The position numbers and the translations under genes were made by a program. From NCBI GenBank assembly GCA_965230895.1, contig OZ246394.1:29723-93722 (forward strand): a stretch of DNA of 64,000 nt. Direction: 5' to 3'. The notes under the pieces are model-generated. The model saw only the letters and a list, made by a program, of their open reading frames with translations. It did no database searches and was not told the origin of the DNA. Below, piece after piece: positions 4,834 through 46,197 of this stretch (within the stretch, counting starts at the first letter, position 1; every line of letters starts with the position of its first letter). The stretch is from an uncultured Gammaproteobacteria bacterium. Its GTDB lineage: Bacteria > Patescibacteriota > Microgenomatia > Levybacterales > UBA12049.

Positions 4834-6267
4834 ATGTCTCCCTTTGTTTTTGTCATATTTGGCGCGACCGGTGATTTGGCCCGACATAAATTACTCCCAG
4901 CCCTCTTCTCATTATACAAGCACAATCAGCTTGGGCAGAAATTCTATATTGTTGGATTCGCAAGACGCGAATTTACAGACGAAGAGTATGCTCACATGCT
5001 TGGTGATGAACTAGAATTTCATAAAGATGAAAAGTGGAAGGCTTTTGCAAAGAATATTTATTATCAACAAGGATATTTCGATCAGCCTCAGGGATATGAA
5101 GAATTAATTGGAAAGCTCAATGGTTTTGATACTGAAATTGGAGCATGTATCACACGCGTTTTTTATCTTGCCACACCACCGGATAATTACGAAAATATTC
5201 TCCAACATCTTGAGTCGACGAAACTTTCCGAAGGCTGCGGACAAGGTTCTGAGAAATGGACACGATTGGCAATCGAAAAACCTTTTGGTAAAGATCTTGA
5301 TACAGCACGAGCTCTTGATAAAAAACTTTCAAATATATTTGAAGAAAAGCAAATTTATCGTGTTGATCACTATCTCGGTAAAGAAACAGTACAGAATATG
5401 TTGGCGTTTCGTTTTGCCAACAGTATCTTCGAACCAATTTGGAATAAGCAGCATATCGATAATGTCCAGATAACATTCGCTGAGAAAAAAGGAATCGGTA
5501 CGAGAGGAAAATTTTTTGATGGAGTTGGAATGCTTCGCGATGTTGCACAGAATCATCTGCTGCAGCTTTTTGCGACCGTGGCTATGGAGCAGCCAAAGAG
5601 TTTCACTAAGGAAAGCGTCCGTGACGAACGTGCGAAAGCAATCAAAGCGATCCGTCCATTAACGCAAGAAGATGTGAAGCGTCAAGTTGTTCGTGGACAA
5701 TATGTCGGATATACCAAGGAGAAAGATGTTGTTCCATCTTCACGGACTGAAACATTTGCTGCAATGAAACTTTTTGTGGATACTGAACGGTTTGCAGACG
5801 TTCCTTTTTACTTACGAGCTGGAAAAGAAATTGAGCAAAACCTCGTGGAGATAAAAGTTATCTTTAAACAAACTTGTCATATTTTATTTAAAGAATATGG
5901 TTGTCCTGAAGTCGGAAATGTCCTCACAATTCGTATTCAACCAGATGAAGGAATAAATCTTCGTGTGATGGCAAAGAATCCGGGAACTGAGCTTGCTCTA
6001 AGCACAGTTGATATGCATTTCTCTTATCATGCTACATTCGGACATCATGGTGCAGACGCCTATGAAAAAATTATGTTGGATATCCTGAAAGGTGACCAAA
6101 TCCTGTTTAATCGCTCCGATGAACTCGATTATTCTTGGTCGCTCATTTCGCAGATTCTCAAGGGATGGGAAGAGGACTCTGAGGATGTCCCTCAATATGA
6201 GAAAGGTAAATGGGGACCAAAAGAAGCATTTGATCTTATAGAGCGAGATGGAAGAAAATGGTTGTGA
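4834..6267 (+). CDS. zwf: glucose-6-phosphate 1-dehydrogenase
   Basis: 'VIFGATGDLARHKLLPAL', 'IYRVDHYLGKE' canonical G6PD motifs; 477 aa. Confidence 0.9.
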   Translation: MSPFVFVIFGATGDLARHKLLPALFSLYKHNQLGQKFYIVGFARREFTDEEYAHMLGDELEFHKDEKWKAFAKNIYYQQGYFDQPQGYEELIGKLNGFDTEIGACITRVFYLATPPDNYENILQHLESTKLSEGCGQGSEKWTRLAIEKPFGKDLDTARALDKKLSNIFEEKQIYRVDHYLGKETVQNMLAFRFANSIFEPIWNKQHIDNVQITFAEKKGIGTRGKFFDGVGMLRDVAQNHLLQLFATVAMEQPKSFTKESVRDERAKAIKAIRPLTQEDVKRQVVRGQYVGYTKEKDVVPSSRTETFAAMKLFVDTERFADVPFYLRAGKEIEQNLVEIKVIFKQTCHILFKEYGCPEVGNVLTIRIQPDEGINLRVMAKNPGTELALSTVDMHFSYHATFGHHGADAYEKIMLDILKGDQILFNRSDELDYSWSLISQILKGWEEDSEDVPQYEKGKWGPKEAFDLIERDGRKWL

Positions 6268-6309
6268 TTGGTATTTCTTCGCTGGTGTGTTATAAATAAT
6301 AAGTAAATT

Positions 6310-7293
6310 ATGCAAGTAGCTATTTTAGGACTCGGAAGAATGGGCAGAAATATTGCCGAGAAGTTGATGAAAGAAGGACATCATGTTGTGGTCTGGAATC
6401 GTTCTCGAGCAATCCTTGACGAGATGCGTCAGAACGAAACAGAATATATCGTTAATGGGCAGTTGGTATTAGCTCATACTCTTGAAGAACTTCGAGATAC
6501 ACTACAAAAACCTCGTATTCTCTGGGCAATGCTTCCAGCAGGAGATCCTACAGAAAATGTCATGACACAACTTCTGGAAACAGTTGTGGAGCAAGGAGAT
6601 GTTGTTATCGATGGAGGAAATGCTTTTTATAAAGATACCGAGCGAAGAGCGCAACAGTTTGCTCAAAAATCTGTGAAGTATCTTGGAATTGGTGTTTCAG
6701 GTGGTATCGTTGGTGCAACGAATGGATACCCTCTTATGGTTGGTGGAGACCAAACTGGATATGAATATATTAAGCCTGTTCTTGATAGTCTTGTAAAGCC
6801 AAATGGGGGACATGCATACTTTGGTACAGGTGGTGCTGGACATTTTGTAAAAATGGTTCACAACGGTATTGAATATGGGATGATGCAAGCTATTGCTGAA
6901 GGTTTTGGTGTCCTTGCCAAAAGTGAATATCGACCAAATCTTATTAGCGTTGCAAACACATGGCAAAAAGGAAGTATTATCTCTAGTTTTCTTGTCTGGA
7001 TGGCTGAAAATGCAATTAGTAAGGATCCAAACCTTGCCCAATTTGATGGTTTTATTGAAGCAACTGGTGAAGGGAAATGGACTAGTGAATTCGCGAAAGA
7101 AAATCACGTGCCAACTCCTGTTTTGGATGCATCAATTGATTTTCGTAATCGATCGCAATACGATAAGGGTGTACAAGAAACATATGTCGCGAAGCTTGTC
7201 GCTGCACTTCGTCATGAATTTGGTGGACATGCGATTCATAAAGAAGATCCAATCGCTAATGGATCTGGAACTCCTCCAACACAGACTTCATAA
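6310..7293 (+). CDS. gnd: 6-phosphogluconate dehydrogenase (decarboxylating), short form
   Basis: N-terminal 'VAILGLGRMGRNIAEKL' Rossmann; 6PGDH central/C-terminal similarity; preceded by 'TGTGTTATAAAT'. Confidence 0.8.
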   Translation: MQVAILGLGRMGRNIAEKLMKEGHHVVVWNRSRAILDEMRQNETEYIVNGQLVLAHTLEELRDTLQKPRILWAMLPAGDPTENVMTQLLETVVEQGDVVIDGGNAFYKDTERRAQQFAQKSVKYLGIGVSGGIVGATNGYPLMVGGDQTGYEYIKPVLDSLVKPNGGHAYFGTGGAGHFVKMVHNGIEYGMMQAIAEGFGVLAKSEYRPNLISVANTWQKGSIISSFLVWMAENAISKDPNLAQFDGFIEATGEGKWTSEFAKENHVPTPVLDASIDFRNRSQYDKGVQETYVAKLVAALRHEFGGHAIHKEDPIANGSGTPPTQTS

Positions 7294-7303
7294 GCCCTCA
7301 AGT

Positions 7304-7332
7304 TTGACTTAGCTTCACATTTTGGCTACAAT
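7304..7332 (+). promoter_or_regulatory. sigma-A type promoter for proS leader (TTGACT-17-TACAAT)
   Basis: ttgact at 7304-7309, 17-nt spacer, tacaat at 7327-7332. Confidence 0.5.
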
Positions 7333-7339
7333 ATGTTCA

Positions 7340-7568
7340 TAAAGCGTTGGAGTTTGGCATCCTACCAAACAATTTCATTTTTGAAACGCTGACTGTGGGT
7401 TTACAAGAACGAAGCAGTACGGAAAGCCTAACCGTATAAATAAGGAAACTGAAATCATTCGTATGAATAGAGTCAGTGAGTAAGGTTTCATTAGTGATAA
7501 TGAAGCGAACCAGGGTGGTACCACGAGAAATTACCTCGTCCTTGAGCTGTACAAGGGGGAGGTTTTTT
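7340..7568 (+). promoter_or_regulatory. T-box riboswitch leader (Pro-specific candidate) with terminator/antiterminator
   Basis: T-box sequence 'AACCAGGGTGGTACCACGAG' at 7508-7527; 11-bp terminator stem 7531-7561 followed by T7; candidate specifier CCU-A at 7361-7364; sits upstream of proS. Confidence 0.6.
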
Positions 7569-7569
7569 T

Positions 7570-7938
7570 GTGCCTGAAAAATATCGTAAAATAACAACAG
7601 AAATTATACTTGCGGGAGAACATGCTGAAGCATACTTAACAAGGAAAGAATTATTGGATAAAACGCATCGAAATGAGAATGGTGAATTCTTGGTCGGGAA
7701 ATTTGCTGGACGAAAAAGAAGATCTATTCTTGGAACAACCCATGTCGAGTTTGGTTTTGTAAAAGAAACAGGCAATCGAGAGGTCATTTTATTTGGAGGA
7801 TGGCTTGGAAACAAAAAGAAGGGGCGTAAAATTTCTGTTTCACCAGAAGGAGTTGGCTTTCAACAATTTACAAATGGTGTTGATATCGTGGTTAGAACAA
7901 ATGCTGAAACAGCAGTCTATGAAGAAAATATACGCTAG
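7570..7938 (+). CDS. hypothetical protein (GTG start), co-transcribed with proS under T-box control
   Basis: 122-aa ORF immediately after T-box terminator; no confident domain; position suggests a ProRS accessory or editing factor. Confidence 0.4.
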   Translation: MPEKYRKITTEIILAGEHAEAYLTRKELLDKTHRNENGEFLVGKFAGRKRRSILGTTHVEFGFVKETGNREVILFGGWLGNKKKGRKISVSPEGVGFQQFTNGVDIVVRTNAETAVYEENIR

Positions 7939-7959
7939 AGATTATGCTATACTAACAAC

Positions 7960-9192
7960 ATGAAATATTCGAAATTATATATCAAAACAAGTAAAAATGT
8001 GCCATCTGATGAAACTGCTAAAAATGCTCAGCTCCTCATCCAAGCGGGTTTTGTTTACAAAATAATGGCTGGCGTTTATGCTTATTCGCCACTTGGTTTG
8101 CGAGTGCTTGAGAATATCAAAAAGATTGTTCGAGAAGAGATGAATGCAGTTGATGGTCAAGAGCTGATCATGTCGAGTCTTCAAAATCCTGAAACATGGA
8201 AAATTACAACAAGATGGGATGATGATGTCGTCGATGTGTGGTTCAAATCAAAACTGAAAGATGAAACTGAAATTGGTCTTGCCTGGTCTCATGAAGAGCC
8301 AATTATGGAGATGATGCAGCATGTTATTACAAGTTACCGTGATCTTCCAACAAGTGTCTATCAATTCCAAACCAAACTTCGAAATGAATTGCGTGCAAAG
8401 AGTGGAATCATGCGCGGACGAGAATTTGTCATGAAAGATATGTATTCATTGCATGCTTCAGCTGAGGATCTGGACAAATATTACAACGAAGTAATTGAGG
8501 CATACAAGAAAGTCTATGATCGGTTAGGTTTGGGAGAGGACACGTATGTTACTTTCGCAAGTGGTGGTGCATTTACCAAGTTTAGTCACGAATTCCAAAC
8601 TATTTGTGAAGCTGGAGAAGATATCTTGTATCTACATCGAGGGAAGAATATTGCTGTCAATGAAGAAGTCCTTGATGAAGCAGTTAAAGAGCTTGGCATC
8701 GATAAAAAGGATCTTGAAAAAGTGAAGAGTGCAGAAGTTGGTAATATCTTTAACTTTGGTACGGAAAAAGCAGAACAAATGGGAATTACATTTACAGATA
8801 AAGAAGGTAAGCAGCAACCAATTTACCTTGCCTCATATGGTATTGGAATTACACGTGTCATGGGAGTTATCGTTGAGAAATTTGTAGATGAGCGAGGCAT
8901 TGTCTGGCCTGAAAATGTCGCTCCTTACAAAGTGTATTTGGTTTCAATTAAAGCAAATGACAAAGCAGAGAAGTTATATAAAAATCTTCAACAAGCTGGA
9001 GTAGAAGTTCTTTATGATGATCGCGAAGATGTGGGGCCTGGTGCGAAGTTCGCAGATGCAGACTTGATTGGAATTCCAGTAAGATTGGTTGTCTCACCAA
9101 AAACAGAAGAGAAAGTTGAATGGAAAAAAAGAACAGAAAAAGAATCAGAATTAATCAGTGTCGAAGAAGTCCTCAAACGCTTGAAGAAGTAA
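7960..9192 (+). CDS. proS: prolyl-tRNA synthetase, short form lacking the INS editing domain
   Basis: Class II motif 2 'FQTKLRNELRAKSGIMRGREFVMKDMYSLH', motif 1 and C-terminal anticodon-binding domain; 410 aa. Confidence 0.9.
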   Translation: MKYSKLYIKTSKNVPSDETAKNAQLLIQAGFVYKIMAGVYAYSPLGLRVLENIKKIVREEMNAVDGQELIMSSLQNPETWKITTRWDDDVVDVWFKSKLKDETEIGLAWSHEEPIMEMMQHVITSYRDLPTSVYQFQTKLRNELRAKSGIMRGREFVMKDMYSLHASAEDLDKYYNEVIEAYKKVYDRLGLGEDTYVTFASGGAFTKFSHEFQTICEAGEDILYLHRGKNIAVNEEVLDEAVKELGIDKKDLEKVKSAEVGNIFNFGTEKAEQMGITFTDKEGKQQPIYLASYGIGITRVMGVIVEKFVDERGIVWPENVAPYKVYLVSIKANDKAEKLYKNLQQAGVEVLYDDREDVGPGAKFADADLIGIPVRLVVSPKTEEKVEWKKRTEKESELISVEEVLKRLKK

Positions 9193-9990
9193 CTAGAATA
9201 AGAACGGTAAATTAAATACTTTAATCCAAAAAACTGTATAAATCGCAAAGAAAACTACTGCACCTACAATATACAAAACCCGAAGTAAGGATGATGCTTC
9301 ATGAGGTGCGTTTGCTTGAGAAACTTCAGCAGGTGAAGGCAATGGCTGTGTGAATACTTGCGCTTGGGGTTCTCCTGGCGCAGGATTATACGGAGTGACA
9401 GGTGCCATAGGATCTGCATCTGGCGTTTGATTCGAAGAATCAAGTGATGAGAATGCCTGTGGAGATGCCATTTCAGGTTGAGATGGAGTTTCTGAAGGCG
9501 CAGGATTATTGAAAAAAGCAGACGGCGAACTGCTCGGAGTAGCAAGACTTGATGTTGGTTCGGATGGTATAGGAGAAGGCTCATTCGTCGCAAAAAGTGT
9601 TGCTGAAGGATCAGTTGTTTCAGGTGAAGTTGGCGATGGTTGTCCAAAAGGATCATTCATTGGGGGCATTGCTGGTTCTGTCGGCATGGGATTTGAAAGT
9701 GTTGGATCTGTGATCGGAGTTGCTGACGGTGATGTCGACAAAACATTATTTGGATCGCTAGTATTAATGAGCGGATCAGTAGCTGAAGCTGAAAGACTAC
9801 TTGCCATAGGATCTGACGGCATTGCTGTATCTGCCGGTGTCGGTGTATTCACCGGAGTATCTGTCGGAGTTGTCCCTGATGCATCGTGTGCCACACCCAT
9901 GATTCGATCATAAGTTTCGCGTGCTTTCGGGTCAAGGTGATTAAGGGCTTTTGGATCCATAAGGTCTCTTTTAATCATCCCATTTTTCAA
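9193..9990 (-). CDS. Pro/Thr/Ser-rich protein with C-terminal TM anchor
   Basis: 265 aa, long low-complexity PT/PS tract, C-terminal 'LYIVGAVVFFAIYTVFWI' hydrophobic segment. Confidence 0.5.
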   Translation of the reverse strand: MKNGMIKRDLMDPKALNHLDPKARETYDRIMGVAHDASGTTPTDTPVNTPTPADTAMPSDPMASSLSASATDPLINTSDPNNVLSTSPSATPITDPTLSNPMPTEPAMPPMNDPFGQPSPTSPETTDPSATLFATNEPSPIPSEPTSSLATPSSSPSAFFNNPAPSETPSQPEMASPQAFSSLDSSNQTPDADPMAPVTPYNPAPGEPQAQVFTQPLPSPAEVSQANAPHEASSLLRVLYIVGAVVFFAIYTVFWIKVFNLPFLF

Positions 9991-46010: not shown

Positions 46011-46160
46011 CCCAGCCTTTTCCTATATTGACAAGCTTTTAGGAAATGATACACTCAACTTAATATATGGAATCCATCACAATTCATTCTCTCATTTGCA
46101 TTACAAATCTTCCACCAGGAAGGGTTTTATAGTGCAATGTAAATCAAGTTGTCTATAATA

Positions 46161-46186
46161 CCCTCCTAAATATGGAGGGTTTTTTG
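46161..46186 (+). terminator. intrinsic terminator
   Basis: CCCTCCtaaatatGGAGGG hairpin followed by TTTTTT. Confidence 0.6.
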
Positions 46187-46197
46187 TAAGAAGAATT

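Follow-up and report, generated by a model that had tools for sequence, protein, structure and literature searches.

The window analysed here, a stretch of 64,000 nucleotides, carries on its forward strand a short non-coding leader followed by a 122-aa open reading frame (ORF) and by proS, the gene for prolyl-tRNA synthetase (ProRS). We conclude that the leader is a genuine but compact proline T-box, scoring below the Rfam threshold. A first-pass annotation of this DNA had described a T-box sequence, a competing terminator, a 122-aa ORF with a GTG start and a 410-aa ProRS without the INS editing domain, and all of these are present where it placed them. It had also called the T-box sequence canonical, which is right for that sequence and for the antiterminator/terminator switch; the leader as a whole is not canonical, since the Stem I platform is absent, the specifier lies in a terminal loop and the leader scores below the Rfam threshold. 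The genes and features of the locus are the following, in the order of their positions in the window.

4834-6267, forward strand, glucose-6-phosphate dehydrogenase (G6PD) gene
6310-7293, forward strand, 6-phosphogluconate dehydrogenase (6PGD) gene
7294-7569, forward strand, non-coding stretch of 276 nt between 6PGD and the 122-aa ORF
7304-7332, forward strand, promoter-like sequence P1, TTGACT-17 nt-TACAAT, 10/12 consensus matches
7341-7569, forward strand, complete T-box leader RNA, 229 nt, running from AAAGC through the last U of the U-tract
7343-7390, forward strand, Stem I, with base helix AGC(G) 7343-7346 / (C)GCU 7387-7390 enclosing two hairpins
7352-7370, forward strand, specifier hairpin GUUUGG-CAUCCUA-CCAAAC, 6 bp, with a 7-nt terminal loop at 7358-7364
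7361-7363, forward strand, predicted specifier CCU, followed by the purine A7364
7373-7386, forward strand, small lineage-specific hairpin in Stem I, 14 nt in the window
7392-7418, forward strand, Stem II, ACUGU 7392-7396 / GCAGU 7414-7418, 5 bp, without an S-turn
within 7420-7445, forward strand, Stem IIA, CGG 7420-7422 / CCG 7432-7434, 3 bp
within 7420-7445, forward strand, pseudoknot IIB, CCU 7427-7429 / AGG 7443-7445
7486-7505, forward strand, Stem III, UUUCAUUA, GUGA loop, UAAUGAAG
7508-7527, forward strand, T-box sequence AACCAGGGTGGTACCACGAG, read in the sequence
7508-7544, forward strand, antiterminator, with helix A1 CAGGG 7511-7515 / CCUUG 7540-7544 and helix A2 ACGAG 7523-7527 / CUCGU 7535-7539
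7516-7522, forward strand, antiterminator bulge UGGUACC, 7 nt, between A1 and A2
7533-7544 / 7552-7563, forward strand, terminator/sequestrator hairpin, followed by U7 at 7563-7569
7558-7562, forward strand, Shine-Dalgarno (SD) sequence GGAGG of the 122-aa ORF, within the 3' arm of the terminator
7570-7938, forward strand, 122-aa ORF with a GTG start; small, basic, proline-poor, of an unnamed family
7939-7959, forward strand, spacer of 21 nt between the 122-aa ORF and proS
7945-7953, forward strand, conserved box TGCTATACT (7945-7959 with its 6-nt spacer), extended -10-like, putative promoter P2
7960-9192, forward strand, proS, 410-aa ORF encoding a bacterial-type ProRS without the INS editing domain

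With the Rfam T-box model (RF00230) at its gathering threshold of 93 bits, there is no match anywhere in the 64-kb window, and the scan proposed in the first-pass annotation thus gives only a sub-threshold match of 31.7 bits, located at 7403-7546 (E=1.7e-5 when the leader region is searched, E=0.003 for the whole window). This permissive alignment is good over Stem III, the T-box sequence and the antiterminator, but 69 positions of the Stem I model are matched to 13 nt, and over the scanned leaders as a whole 69-86 model positions are aligned to just 9-32 nt. The scan covered the window and seven related loci, whose sub-threshold scores were 36.1 bits (L001), 27.2 (L039), 23.2 (L033), 54.7 (L114), 39.7 (L116), 31.6 (L117) and 25.0 (L118); it left out L119, L120 and L126. 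Because the window leader scores 31.7 bits against 93, the lack of a significant Rfam hit, which had been put forward as grounds for refutation, would wrongly have rejected a real element. The reading that there is no T-box here, which a default Rfam scan suggests, was dropped after the permissive scan and the comparative work described below.

The window itself belongs to a genome of Saccharibacteria (TM7), within Patescibacteria. The comparative work took in the 80 loci, in species-representative genomes, whose ProRS is closest to that of the window; they are mostly metagenome-assembled genomes (MAGs) of Saccharibacteria, the closest being L001, with a ProRS 94% identical to that of the window. 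A T-box core lies upstream of proS in three of them (L001, L033 and L039) and is absent in the other 77. L001 has the same architecture as the window, ORF included, whereas in L033 and L039 the T-box stands immediately 5' of proS and there is no small ORF. A pattern scan of metagenomes, anchored on the Stem II/IIA junction and the T-box core only, returned 35 loci, of which L114 alone was relevant (a T-box followed by proS, with a leader of only 164 nt); the others were chance matches or ordinary Firmicutes T-boxes, and the latter were reused as negative controls. L116, L117, L118, L119, L120 and L126 were found through the genomic context of homologues of the small ORF. The resulting set comprises 11 leaders, ten of them complete (the window, L001, L033, L039, L114, L116, L117, L118, L119 and L126) and one partial (L120). 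Their hosts are Saccharibacteria-like genomes, and in every case the downstream synthetase is a ProRS or has a ProRS-like N-terminus. Taken together, the Rfam E-values, the self-folding of the antiterminator and the covariation among homologous leaders show that the T-box signal exceeds chance.

The ten complete leaders share a single order of modules, namely an AGC/GCU base helix, a hairpin with a 7-nt loop, optional lineage-specific hairpins, a 5-bp Stem II, a 3-bp Stem IIA, pseudoknot IIB (in which the loop of Stem IIA pairs with a segment 5-8 nt downstream), a linker, Stem III, the antiterminator and the terminator. The base helix is invariant in the nine tabulated leaders, and L126 likewise reads AAAGC...GCU; its strands are separated by only 29 nt in L114 and by 41-43 nt in the window. 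The junction GC-GUU-GA...GA-GC of L119 has the canonical K-turn pattern, and GC-GUUU-GA...GA-GC of L114 has the same pattern with one extra bulge nucleotide; in the window the 5' strand reads GC-GUUG-GA, and a K-turn is uncertain because the 3' strand consists of AA plus an inserted hairpin. About 70 nt of Stem I are missing, among them the platform that binds the tRNA elbow: the leaders have neither a long Stem I carrying an AG bulge and a distal loop of interdigitated T-loops nor an internal specifier loop with an S-turn. The codon is instead found in the terminal loop of the specifier hairpin, which reads as follows in the complete leaders.

CAUCCUA (window, L119), codon CCU, A at position 7
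CUUCCUA (L001, L116), codon CCU, A at position 7
UUUCCUG (L114, L118, L126), codon CCU, G at position 7
UAUCCCG (L117), codon CCC, G at position 7
UUCCCAG (L033, L039), codon CCA, G at position 7

This loop thus has CC at positions 4-5 in all ten, U, C or A at position 6 and a purine at position 7, and the stem that carries it shows compensatory changes among leaders. Judged by its sequence, the CC-N-purine loop is a classical proline specifier with the conserved purine, as borne out across the relatives, and because this signature is proline-like and the downstream gene is proS, we read CCU 7361-7363, a candidate in the first-pass annotation, as the specifier. The proline-specific proBA/proI leaders use CCU. 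A second CCU, at 7427-7429, was considered as the specifier and ruled out, as it is part of Stem IIA's loop, pairs with AGG 7443-7445 and becomes CUU/AAG in L001.

The remaining helices of the decoding module covary as well. Four of the five pairs of Stem II show compensatory changes (ACUGC/GCAGU, AUUGG/CCAAU and CAUAC/GUAUG among them), and pseudoknot IIB occurs in seven complementary versions (CCU/AGG, CUU/AAG, GCUA/UAGC, GUCU/AGAC, GUCA/UGAC, GGU/ACC and CAC/GUG, the last being that of L126), with a G.U form, GGU/ACU, in L033. When IIB strands were paired across sequences, the result was near-diagonal: the window and L116 share a version, and otherwise there were three chance matches, each involving the 3-nt strands of L033 or L039. 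As MAFFT misaligned both the length classes and the pseudoknot, its alignment was replaced by a hand segmentation checked by script, which found canonical pairing throughout with two non-canonical pairs in total, and by a model-based alignment. For the latter, a covariance model of the decoding module (R1) was built from seven leaders, L033, L039 and L126 not being among them. R1 scores 93.1 bits at 7341-7451 of the window, recovers the non-training leaders L033 and L039 (E ~0.03) and L126 (E 2e-8), and, in a search of ~720 kb of window and loci, picks out these leaders alone, a same-strain copy (L121) included; its other matches, in L090 and L092 (E 0.33), lie more than 1 kb from the T-boxes of those loci, and it has no match to the T-box leaders of the ordinary Firmicutes control loci. 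In the R1 alignment 98% of cells are paired and 10 of 17 pairs show changes on both sides, values that none of 500 shuffles reaches, and sliding the partner strands drops the pairing to 45% or less.

Downstream of the decoding module lies the switch itself. The isolated segment 7506-7546 has the canonical antiterminator as its minimum-free-energy fold (-9.1 kcal/mol), so that, for the antiterminator, the folding check suggested in the first-pass annotation came out in its favour. The terminator hairpin, which shares the 3' strands of A1 and A2, outweighs the antiterminator (-17.0 versus -9.1 kcal/mol; -18.5 kcal/mol for the terminator on a slightly longer segment). The discriminator region is kept in all 11 leaders: A1 pairs in five of five positions and covaries in L118, helix A2 exists in four complementary versions, and the bulge is always UGGUACC, from which the discriminator base A73 is predicted. 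In L001 and L116, Stem III has GNRA-type loops and differing complementary stems, and it is vestigial in L033 and L039; it carries insertions in L118 and L119, as does A2 in L033, L039, L119 and L120. Inside Stem III of L118 (1858-1877) and L119 (137-158), upstream of the T-box sequence, there is a GC-rich hairpin followed by U6-U7, which is terminator- or pause-like.

At its 5' end, the leader is delimited by P1, whose -10 box ends 8 nt 5' of the conserved AAAGC that opens the window leader, so the leader RNA would begin at the base of Stem I. Of the nine other complete leaders, eight have a near-consensus promoter, read directly, 6-11 nt upstream of AAAGC, and the ninth is L119, whose contig begins at AAAGC itself; promoters at this distance leave no room for a hidden Stem I sequence 5' of the leader.

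We consider it likely that the RNA of 7341-7569 functions as a T-box riboswitch that responds to tRNA-Pro and has a minimal architecture. The structure, the covariation, the codon signature and the gene linkage were computed here, and we infer tRNA binding and termination as the operative step. Transcription would start at P1, and the nascent leader would fold into a compact decoding module of base helix, 6-bp specifier hairpin, 5-bp Stem II and IIA/B pseudoknot, displaying CCU and its purine in the 7-nt terminal loop at 7358-7364 and lacking a distal platform in Stem I for contact with the tRNA elbow. CCU is predicted to pair with the anticodon of tRNA-Pro. An uncharged tRNA could then pair through its NCCA end with UGGU 7516-7519 of the bulge and stabilise the antiterminator at 7511-7544; with the tRNA charged or absent, the stronger hairpin at 7533-7563 with its U7 would form and terminate transcription, and on full-length RNA the same hairpin would also bury the GGAGG ribosome-binding site. 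Read-through RNA would express the 122-aa protein and continue into proS, because there is no terminator in the 21-nt spacer between the two genes, and proS probably has an additional basal, leaderless transcript from TGCTATACT at 7945-7953.

The last of these steps bears on which gene is regulated. The proposal that the T-box controls proS, as first put forward, stands in so far as read-through RNA would include proS, but proS probably has its own promoter at TGCTATACT, so that strict dependence on the T-box would be confined to the small ORF. The P2 box is an extended -10 consensus placed for a transcription start at the A of the ATG. The 12-mer TGCTATACTAAC (7945-7956) is identical in the window, L001, L116, L117, L118 and L126, with the variants TGATATACT in L119 and TGGTATACT in L120, and the box lies 6-7 nt before an ATG in each locus. 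In the window this ATG is the start of proS, and P2 would give a leaderless proS mRNA. In L116, L119 and L120, the ATG after the P2 box is followed by a conserved hairpin, and the start of proS lies further downstream. This combination of AUG and hairpin between the TGnTATACT box and the proS ATG (L116:1158-1182, L119:718-742, L120:577-600) reads AUCCU-UCGACUUUGCUC-AGGAU in L116 and L119 and GCCCU-UCGGCUUCGCUC-AGGGU in L120, with compensatory stem changes; it does not occur in the window, and it could be a 5'-terminal stabiliser or a proS operator. If P2 is real, proS would have a basal expression with a T-box-dependent boost by read-through, and the small ORF would depend fully on the T-box.

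It would be tempting to go further and to suppose that the T-box controls the small ORF only, with a leaderless proS transcribed from TGCTATACT at 7945-7953 and under no meaningful regulation by tRNA-Pro. The retention of the extended -10-like box 6-7 nt before an ATG in all seven loci with T-box, ORF and available DNA agrees with this idea, as does the fact that proS on the long transcript has no SD sequence. However, read-through RNA must include proS as no terminator separates it from the ORF, the T-box stands directly before proS with no ORF in L033, L039 and L114, the specifier matches proS, and the spacing of 18-21 nt would permit re-initiation after the ORF. We therefore regard exclusive control of the small ORF as unlikely, although it is the strongest of the alternatives considered here.

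A further question is whether the switch acts on transcription or on translation. In all 11 leaders a hairpin is followed by U6-U8 (ten were folded, at -18 to -38 kcal/mol, and L126 was read directly), and given a strong hairpin and this U-tract throughout, the switch looks transcriptional. Could it instead act on translation only, with the hairpin at 7533-7563 serving as an SD sequestrator, as in actinobacterial ileS, and the U-tract being incidental? Five leaders (the window, L001, L116, L117 and L126) have their start codon immediately after the U-tract and their SD sequence within the 3' arm of the hairpin (GGAGG 7558-7562 and GTG in the window). Moreover, an ultrashort Stem I has been described for translational T-boxes, which together with the intermediate form is typified by actinobacterial ileS (PMC7583486), and these also tend to have insertions in Stem III and helix A2 (PMC7583486), as some of our leaders do. 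This possibility is nonetheless improbable, since the U6-U8 runs directly follow strong hairpins in every leader, and since six leaders (L033, L039, L114, L118, L119 and L120) have no SD sequence inside the hairpin, the next start codon being 7-44 nt downstream, so that termination is the only mechanism on offer there. The two mechanisms can also coexist in the window: the same hairpin could block translation as well in the five leaders with an SD sequence in its 3' arm.

Several points weigh against a functional riboswitch working as proposed. The RF00230 score of the window leader is below the curated gathering score, just 11 leaders are known, some of them closely related, and part of their alignment was defined by hand. 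In solved structures the codon-anticodon helix is read by an S-turn, and the Stem II found here is too short to hold one. Nor do the window and L001-L060 contain a tRNA-Pro gene by which the complementarity of anticodon and discriminator could be checked (ARAGORN finds no tRNA genes of any kind there). Transcriptional T-boxes generally need a long Stem I with an elbow-binding motif for fast tRNA binding (PMC7583486, section 6.2), and a co-transcriptional switch with no long Stem I platform, as predicted here, is unexpected on that account. As to proS, the evidence for P2 is sequence conservation, and a -10 box 5-8 nt before the ATG occurs in 7 of the 80 related proS loci against 3.3 expected, which is a mild enrichment, while an SD-like sequence occurs in 45 of the 80; these counts weaken the idea, which we had entertained, that a leaderless proS is typical of Saccharibacteria. 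One might go so far as to regard the leader as the relic of a decaying canonical T-box with no regulation left, seeing that its Rfam score is one third of the gathering score, that most of Stem I is gone and that 77 of the 80 related proS loci have no T-box. We judge this very improbable, because the reduced architecture is kept across lineages in which the co-located protein is only ~30% identical, compensatory changes occur in every helix, UGGUACC is invariant, a proline codon is always kept and the terminators are intact.

The ProRS encoded downstream is of the bacterial type. It matches TIGR00409 in two stretches (380.4 bits against a cutoff of 306.7) and contains the class II core PF00587 and the HGTP anticodon-binding domain PF03129, whereas PF04073 (tRNA_edit/INS) is absent, and a tblastn search of the window for INS-like sequence outside proS gave nothing. 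In the 80 related loci the match covers query residues 1 to ~400-410 within a gene of ~1.2 kb, so that an INS-less ProRS is the norm in this group and control by a T-box is the exception (3/80 loci). As L117 and L118 have the same gene order and keep INS, the loss looks internal to the lineage, and INS was probably lost within it.

The 122-aa ORF keeps its frame and length between the window and L116, at 63% identity with a ratio of nonsynonymous to synonymous substitution rates (dN/dS) of 0.23, and by this mark of coding selection, computed from the sequences, it is a real gene. Its dN of 0.30 for that pair compares with 0.034 for ProRS, the latter from a different pair (window and L001). An exhaustive profile search found 20 cluster representatives of its family among 1.84 billion proteins, and a look-up of the identical protein found it only in further samples of the same strain. 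The conserved motifs of the family are NREV, LRRKG..R.VSV and G.G.QQ.T.GV...V.T.AP..FE.N.R; its members are basic (pI ~9-10.5 in 20 of 22) and contain 1.9% proline, against 5.8% in the long ORFs of the window, which serve as a rough background. AlphaFold2 gives a confident, mostly beta model of the 122-aa protein (pLDDT 85.8, pTM 0.77). The family has no match in Pfam, NCBIfam or PADLOC, a sequence profile search of the PDB returned nothing relevant, and Foldseek against PDB and BFVD gave nothing convincing, the best match being an EVH1/PH-like domain (E 0.025, TM 0.3), which is a lead only. A reading of GxGxQQ as the GGQ motif of release factors was dropped, as the second glycine is not conserved and there is neither an RF-1 match nor a fold match.

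The genomic placement of the ORF is consistent. In all 12 contexts considered (the window, L001, L116, L117, L118, L119, L120, L126 and four for which there is no DNA), it lies 3' of a T-box-sized gap of 250-360 nt and 5' of proS or presumed proS, the next gene being ProRS by Pfam/NCBIfam in seven, by 94% identity in L001, and by N-terminus or position alone in the four at a contig end. The distance to the next gene is 18-21 nt in nine of the 12, and the called start of proS is 64, 103 and 109 nt on in L116, L119 and L120, respectively. In three contexts (L117, L118 and P0015) the ORF precedes a ProRS that retains INS (tRNA_edit), and it is thus not a replacement for a lost INS. The notion, raised in the first-pass annotation, that the protein edits as a free-standing factor of the YbaK/ProXp type in place of INS, attractive as it was beside an INS-less ProRS and under proline-specific control, is the least probable of all the alternatives, because searches with 22 family members, at E values as high as 1, match none of them to PF04073 or to another family, the suggested profile search against YbaK/ProX likewise giving no match, whereas the same tool readily detects PF04073 in the ProRS of L117 and L118, and because the structure searches reveal no YbaK-like fold and the ORF accompanies ProRS genes that retain tRNA_edit as well. 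The other half of that suggestion, an accessory role, is possible. A role tied to uncharged tRNA-Pro or to ProRS is the most economical guess in view of the linkage, the dependence on the T-box, the basic charge and the low proline content, and our working guess is an RNA- or ProRS-associated factor that is needed when tRNA-Pro is uncharged.

How do these leaders compare with known T-boxes? Canonical transcriptional T-boxes (RF00230; tyrS and glyQS of Bacillus subtilis, proBA/proI) are alike in the UGGN bulge, A1/A2, Stem III, the terminator with its U-tract, the specifier with its purine, the IIA/B pseudoknot and the control of a cognate synthetase. Compared with them, the present leaders are without the long Stem I, the AG bulge, the distal loop platform and the internal S-turn specifier loop, and have instead a codon in a 7-nt terminal loop and a 5-bp Stem II, scoring 23-55 bits against 93; their hosts are Saccharibacteria, members of the candidate phyla radiation (CPR), rather than Firmicutes. 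The translational (class II) T-boxes of actinobacterial ileS (Mycobacterium tuberculosis, Nocardia farcinica), a comparison that rests on reviews, share with them a truncated Stem I with no platform, the reliance on Stem II and IIA/B, insertions in Stem III and A2 and, as regards the window, a ribosome-binding site in the OFF hairpin. In contrast to class II, U6-U8 follows the OFF hairpin in 11 of 11 leaders and 6 of 11 have no SD sequence in the hairpin, the amino acid and gene are Pro and proS rather than Ile and ileS, Stem II is far shorter and the phylum is another. Thus, of the marks of class II, the leaders show the short Stem I, but not an SD sequence sequestered in the absence of an intrinsic terminator. 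Minimal T-boxes of the glyQS type are likewise naturally reduced and transcriptional, but glyQS has given up Stem II and IIA/B while retaining a long Stem I, and these leaders have done the reverse. The ProRS itself resembles the INS-less bacterial-type ProRS of NCBIfam NF008979/PRK12325 in its class II core, anticodon-binding domain, bacterial-type N-terminus and lack of INS, although its score of 347.8 bits is below the cutoff of 550. In the one literature collection searched, we found no paper linking T-box riboswitches with Saccharibacteria or Patescibacteria.

We tentatively suggest, as a possibility to which we give rather less than even weight, that a distinct minimal class of T-boxes exists in Saccharibacteria/CPR, with these leaders as its first recognised members. 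The class would terminate transcription with neither an elbow platform nor a Stem II S-turn and would decode tRNA-Pro by a codon in a 7-nt loop, and the small protein would be a new factor connected with tRNA-Pro or ProRS, its production confined to conditions of uncharged tRNA-Pro. If the class is indeed distinct, contact with the elbow would not be a general requirement for co-transcriptional T-box function. In the prevailing view, a long Stem I and elbow contact go with transcriptional control and a truncated Stem I with slower translational control; this rule is put to a direct test by a natural family, supported by covariation, in which an ultrashort Stem I is combined with an intrinsic terminator. 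Since standard Rfam annotation misses the class, tRNA-sensing regulation in CPR bacteria is probably under-counted. L114, at ~165 nt the smallest member, would suit structural work or engineering as a very small switch specific for a tRNA, with a possible use in tools for inducible expression, which are still lacking in Patescibacteria. The linkage of T-box, small ORF and proS also flags an uncharacterised family as a candidate in the physiology of proline and tRNA-Pro, in organisms that must import amino acids from their host.

Some further observations concern the surroundings of the locus. Downstream of proS, a 265-aa ORF on the reverse strand (9193-9990), which is rich in Pro, Thr and Ser and has a hydrophobic C-terminus, and a 988-aa ORF on the forward strand (10087-13053) have no Pfam match. 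A sub-threshold Rfam match to the Phe_leader family on the forward strand at 46071-46188 (30.3 bits against 55, E 0.5) is probably due to chance. The gene order (6-phosphogluconolactonase)-G6PD-6PGD-[T-box]-small ORF-proS is common to the window (4834-9192) and L117 (541-6055), and it extends to relatives whose small ORF is only ~30% identical, some of them with an INS-bearing ProRS. The small protein is found in identical form on an NCBI contig of 1.61 Mb, and the contig of L001 measures 1.32 Mb; these genomes may exceed the typical genome of Saccharibacteria, and to speak of a reduced genome may overstate the case. Finally, L001, L005, L011, L013, L017 and other MAGs with a ProRS 67-94% identical to that of the window are labelled as Gammaproteobacteria, Bdellovibrionales or Nevskiaceae and are probably mislabelled bins.

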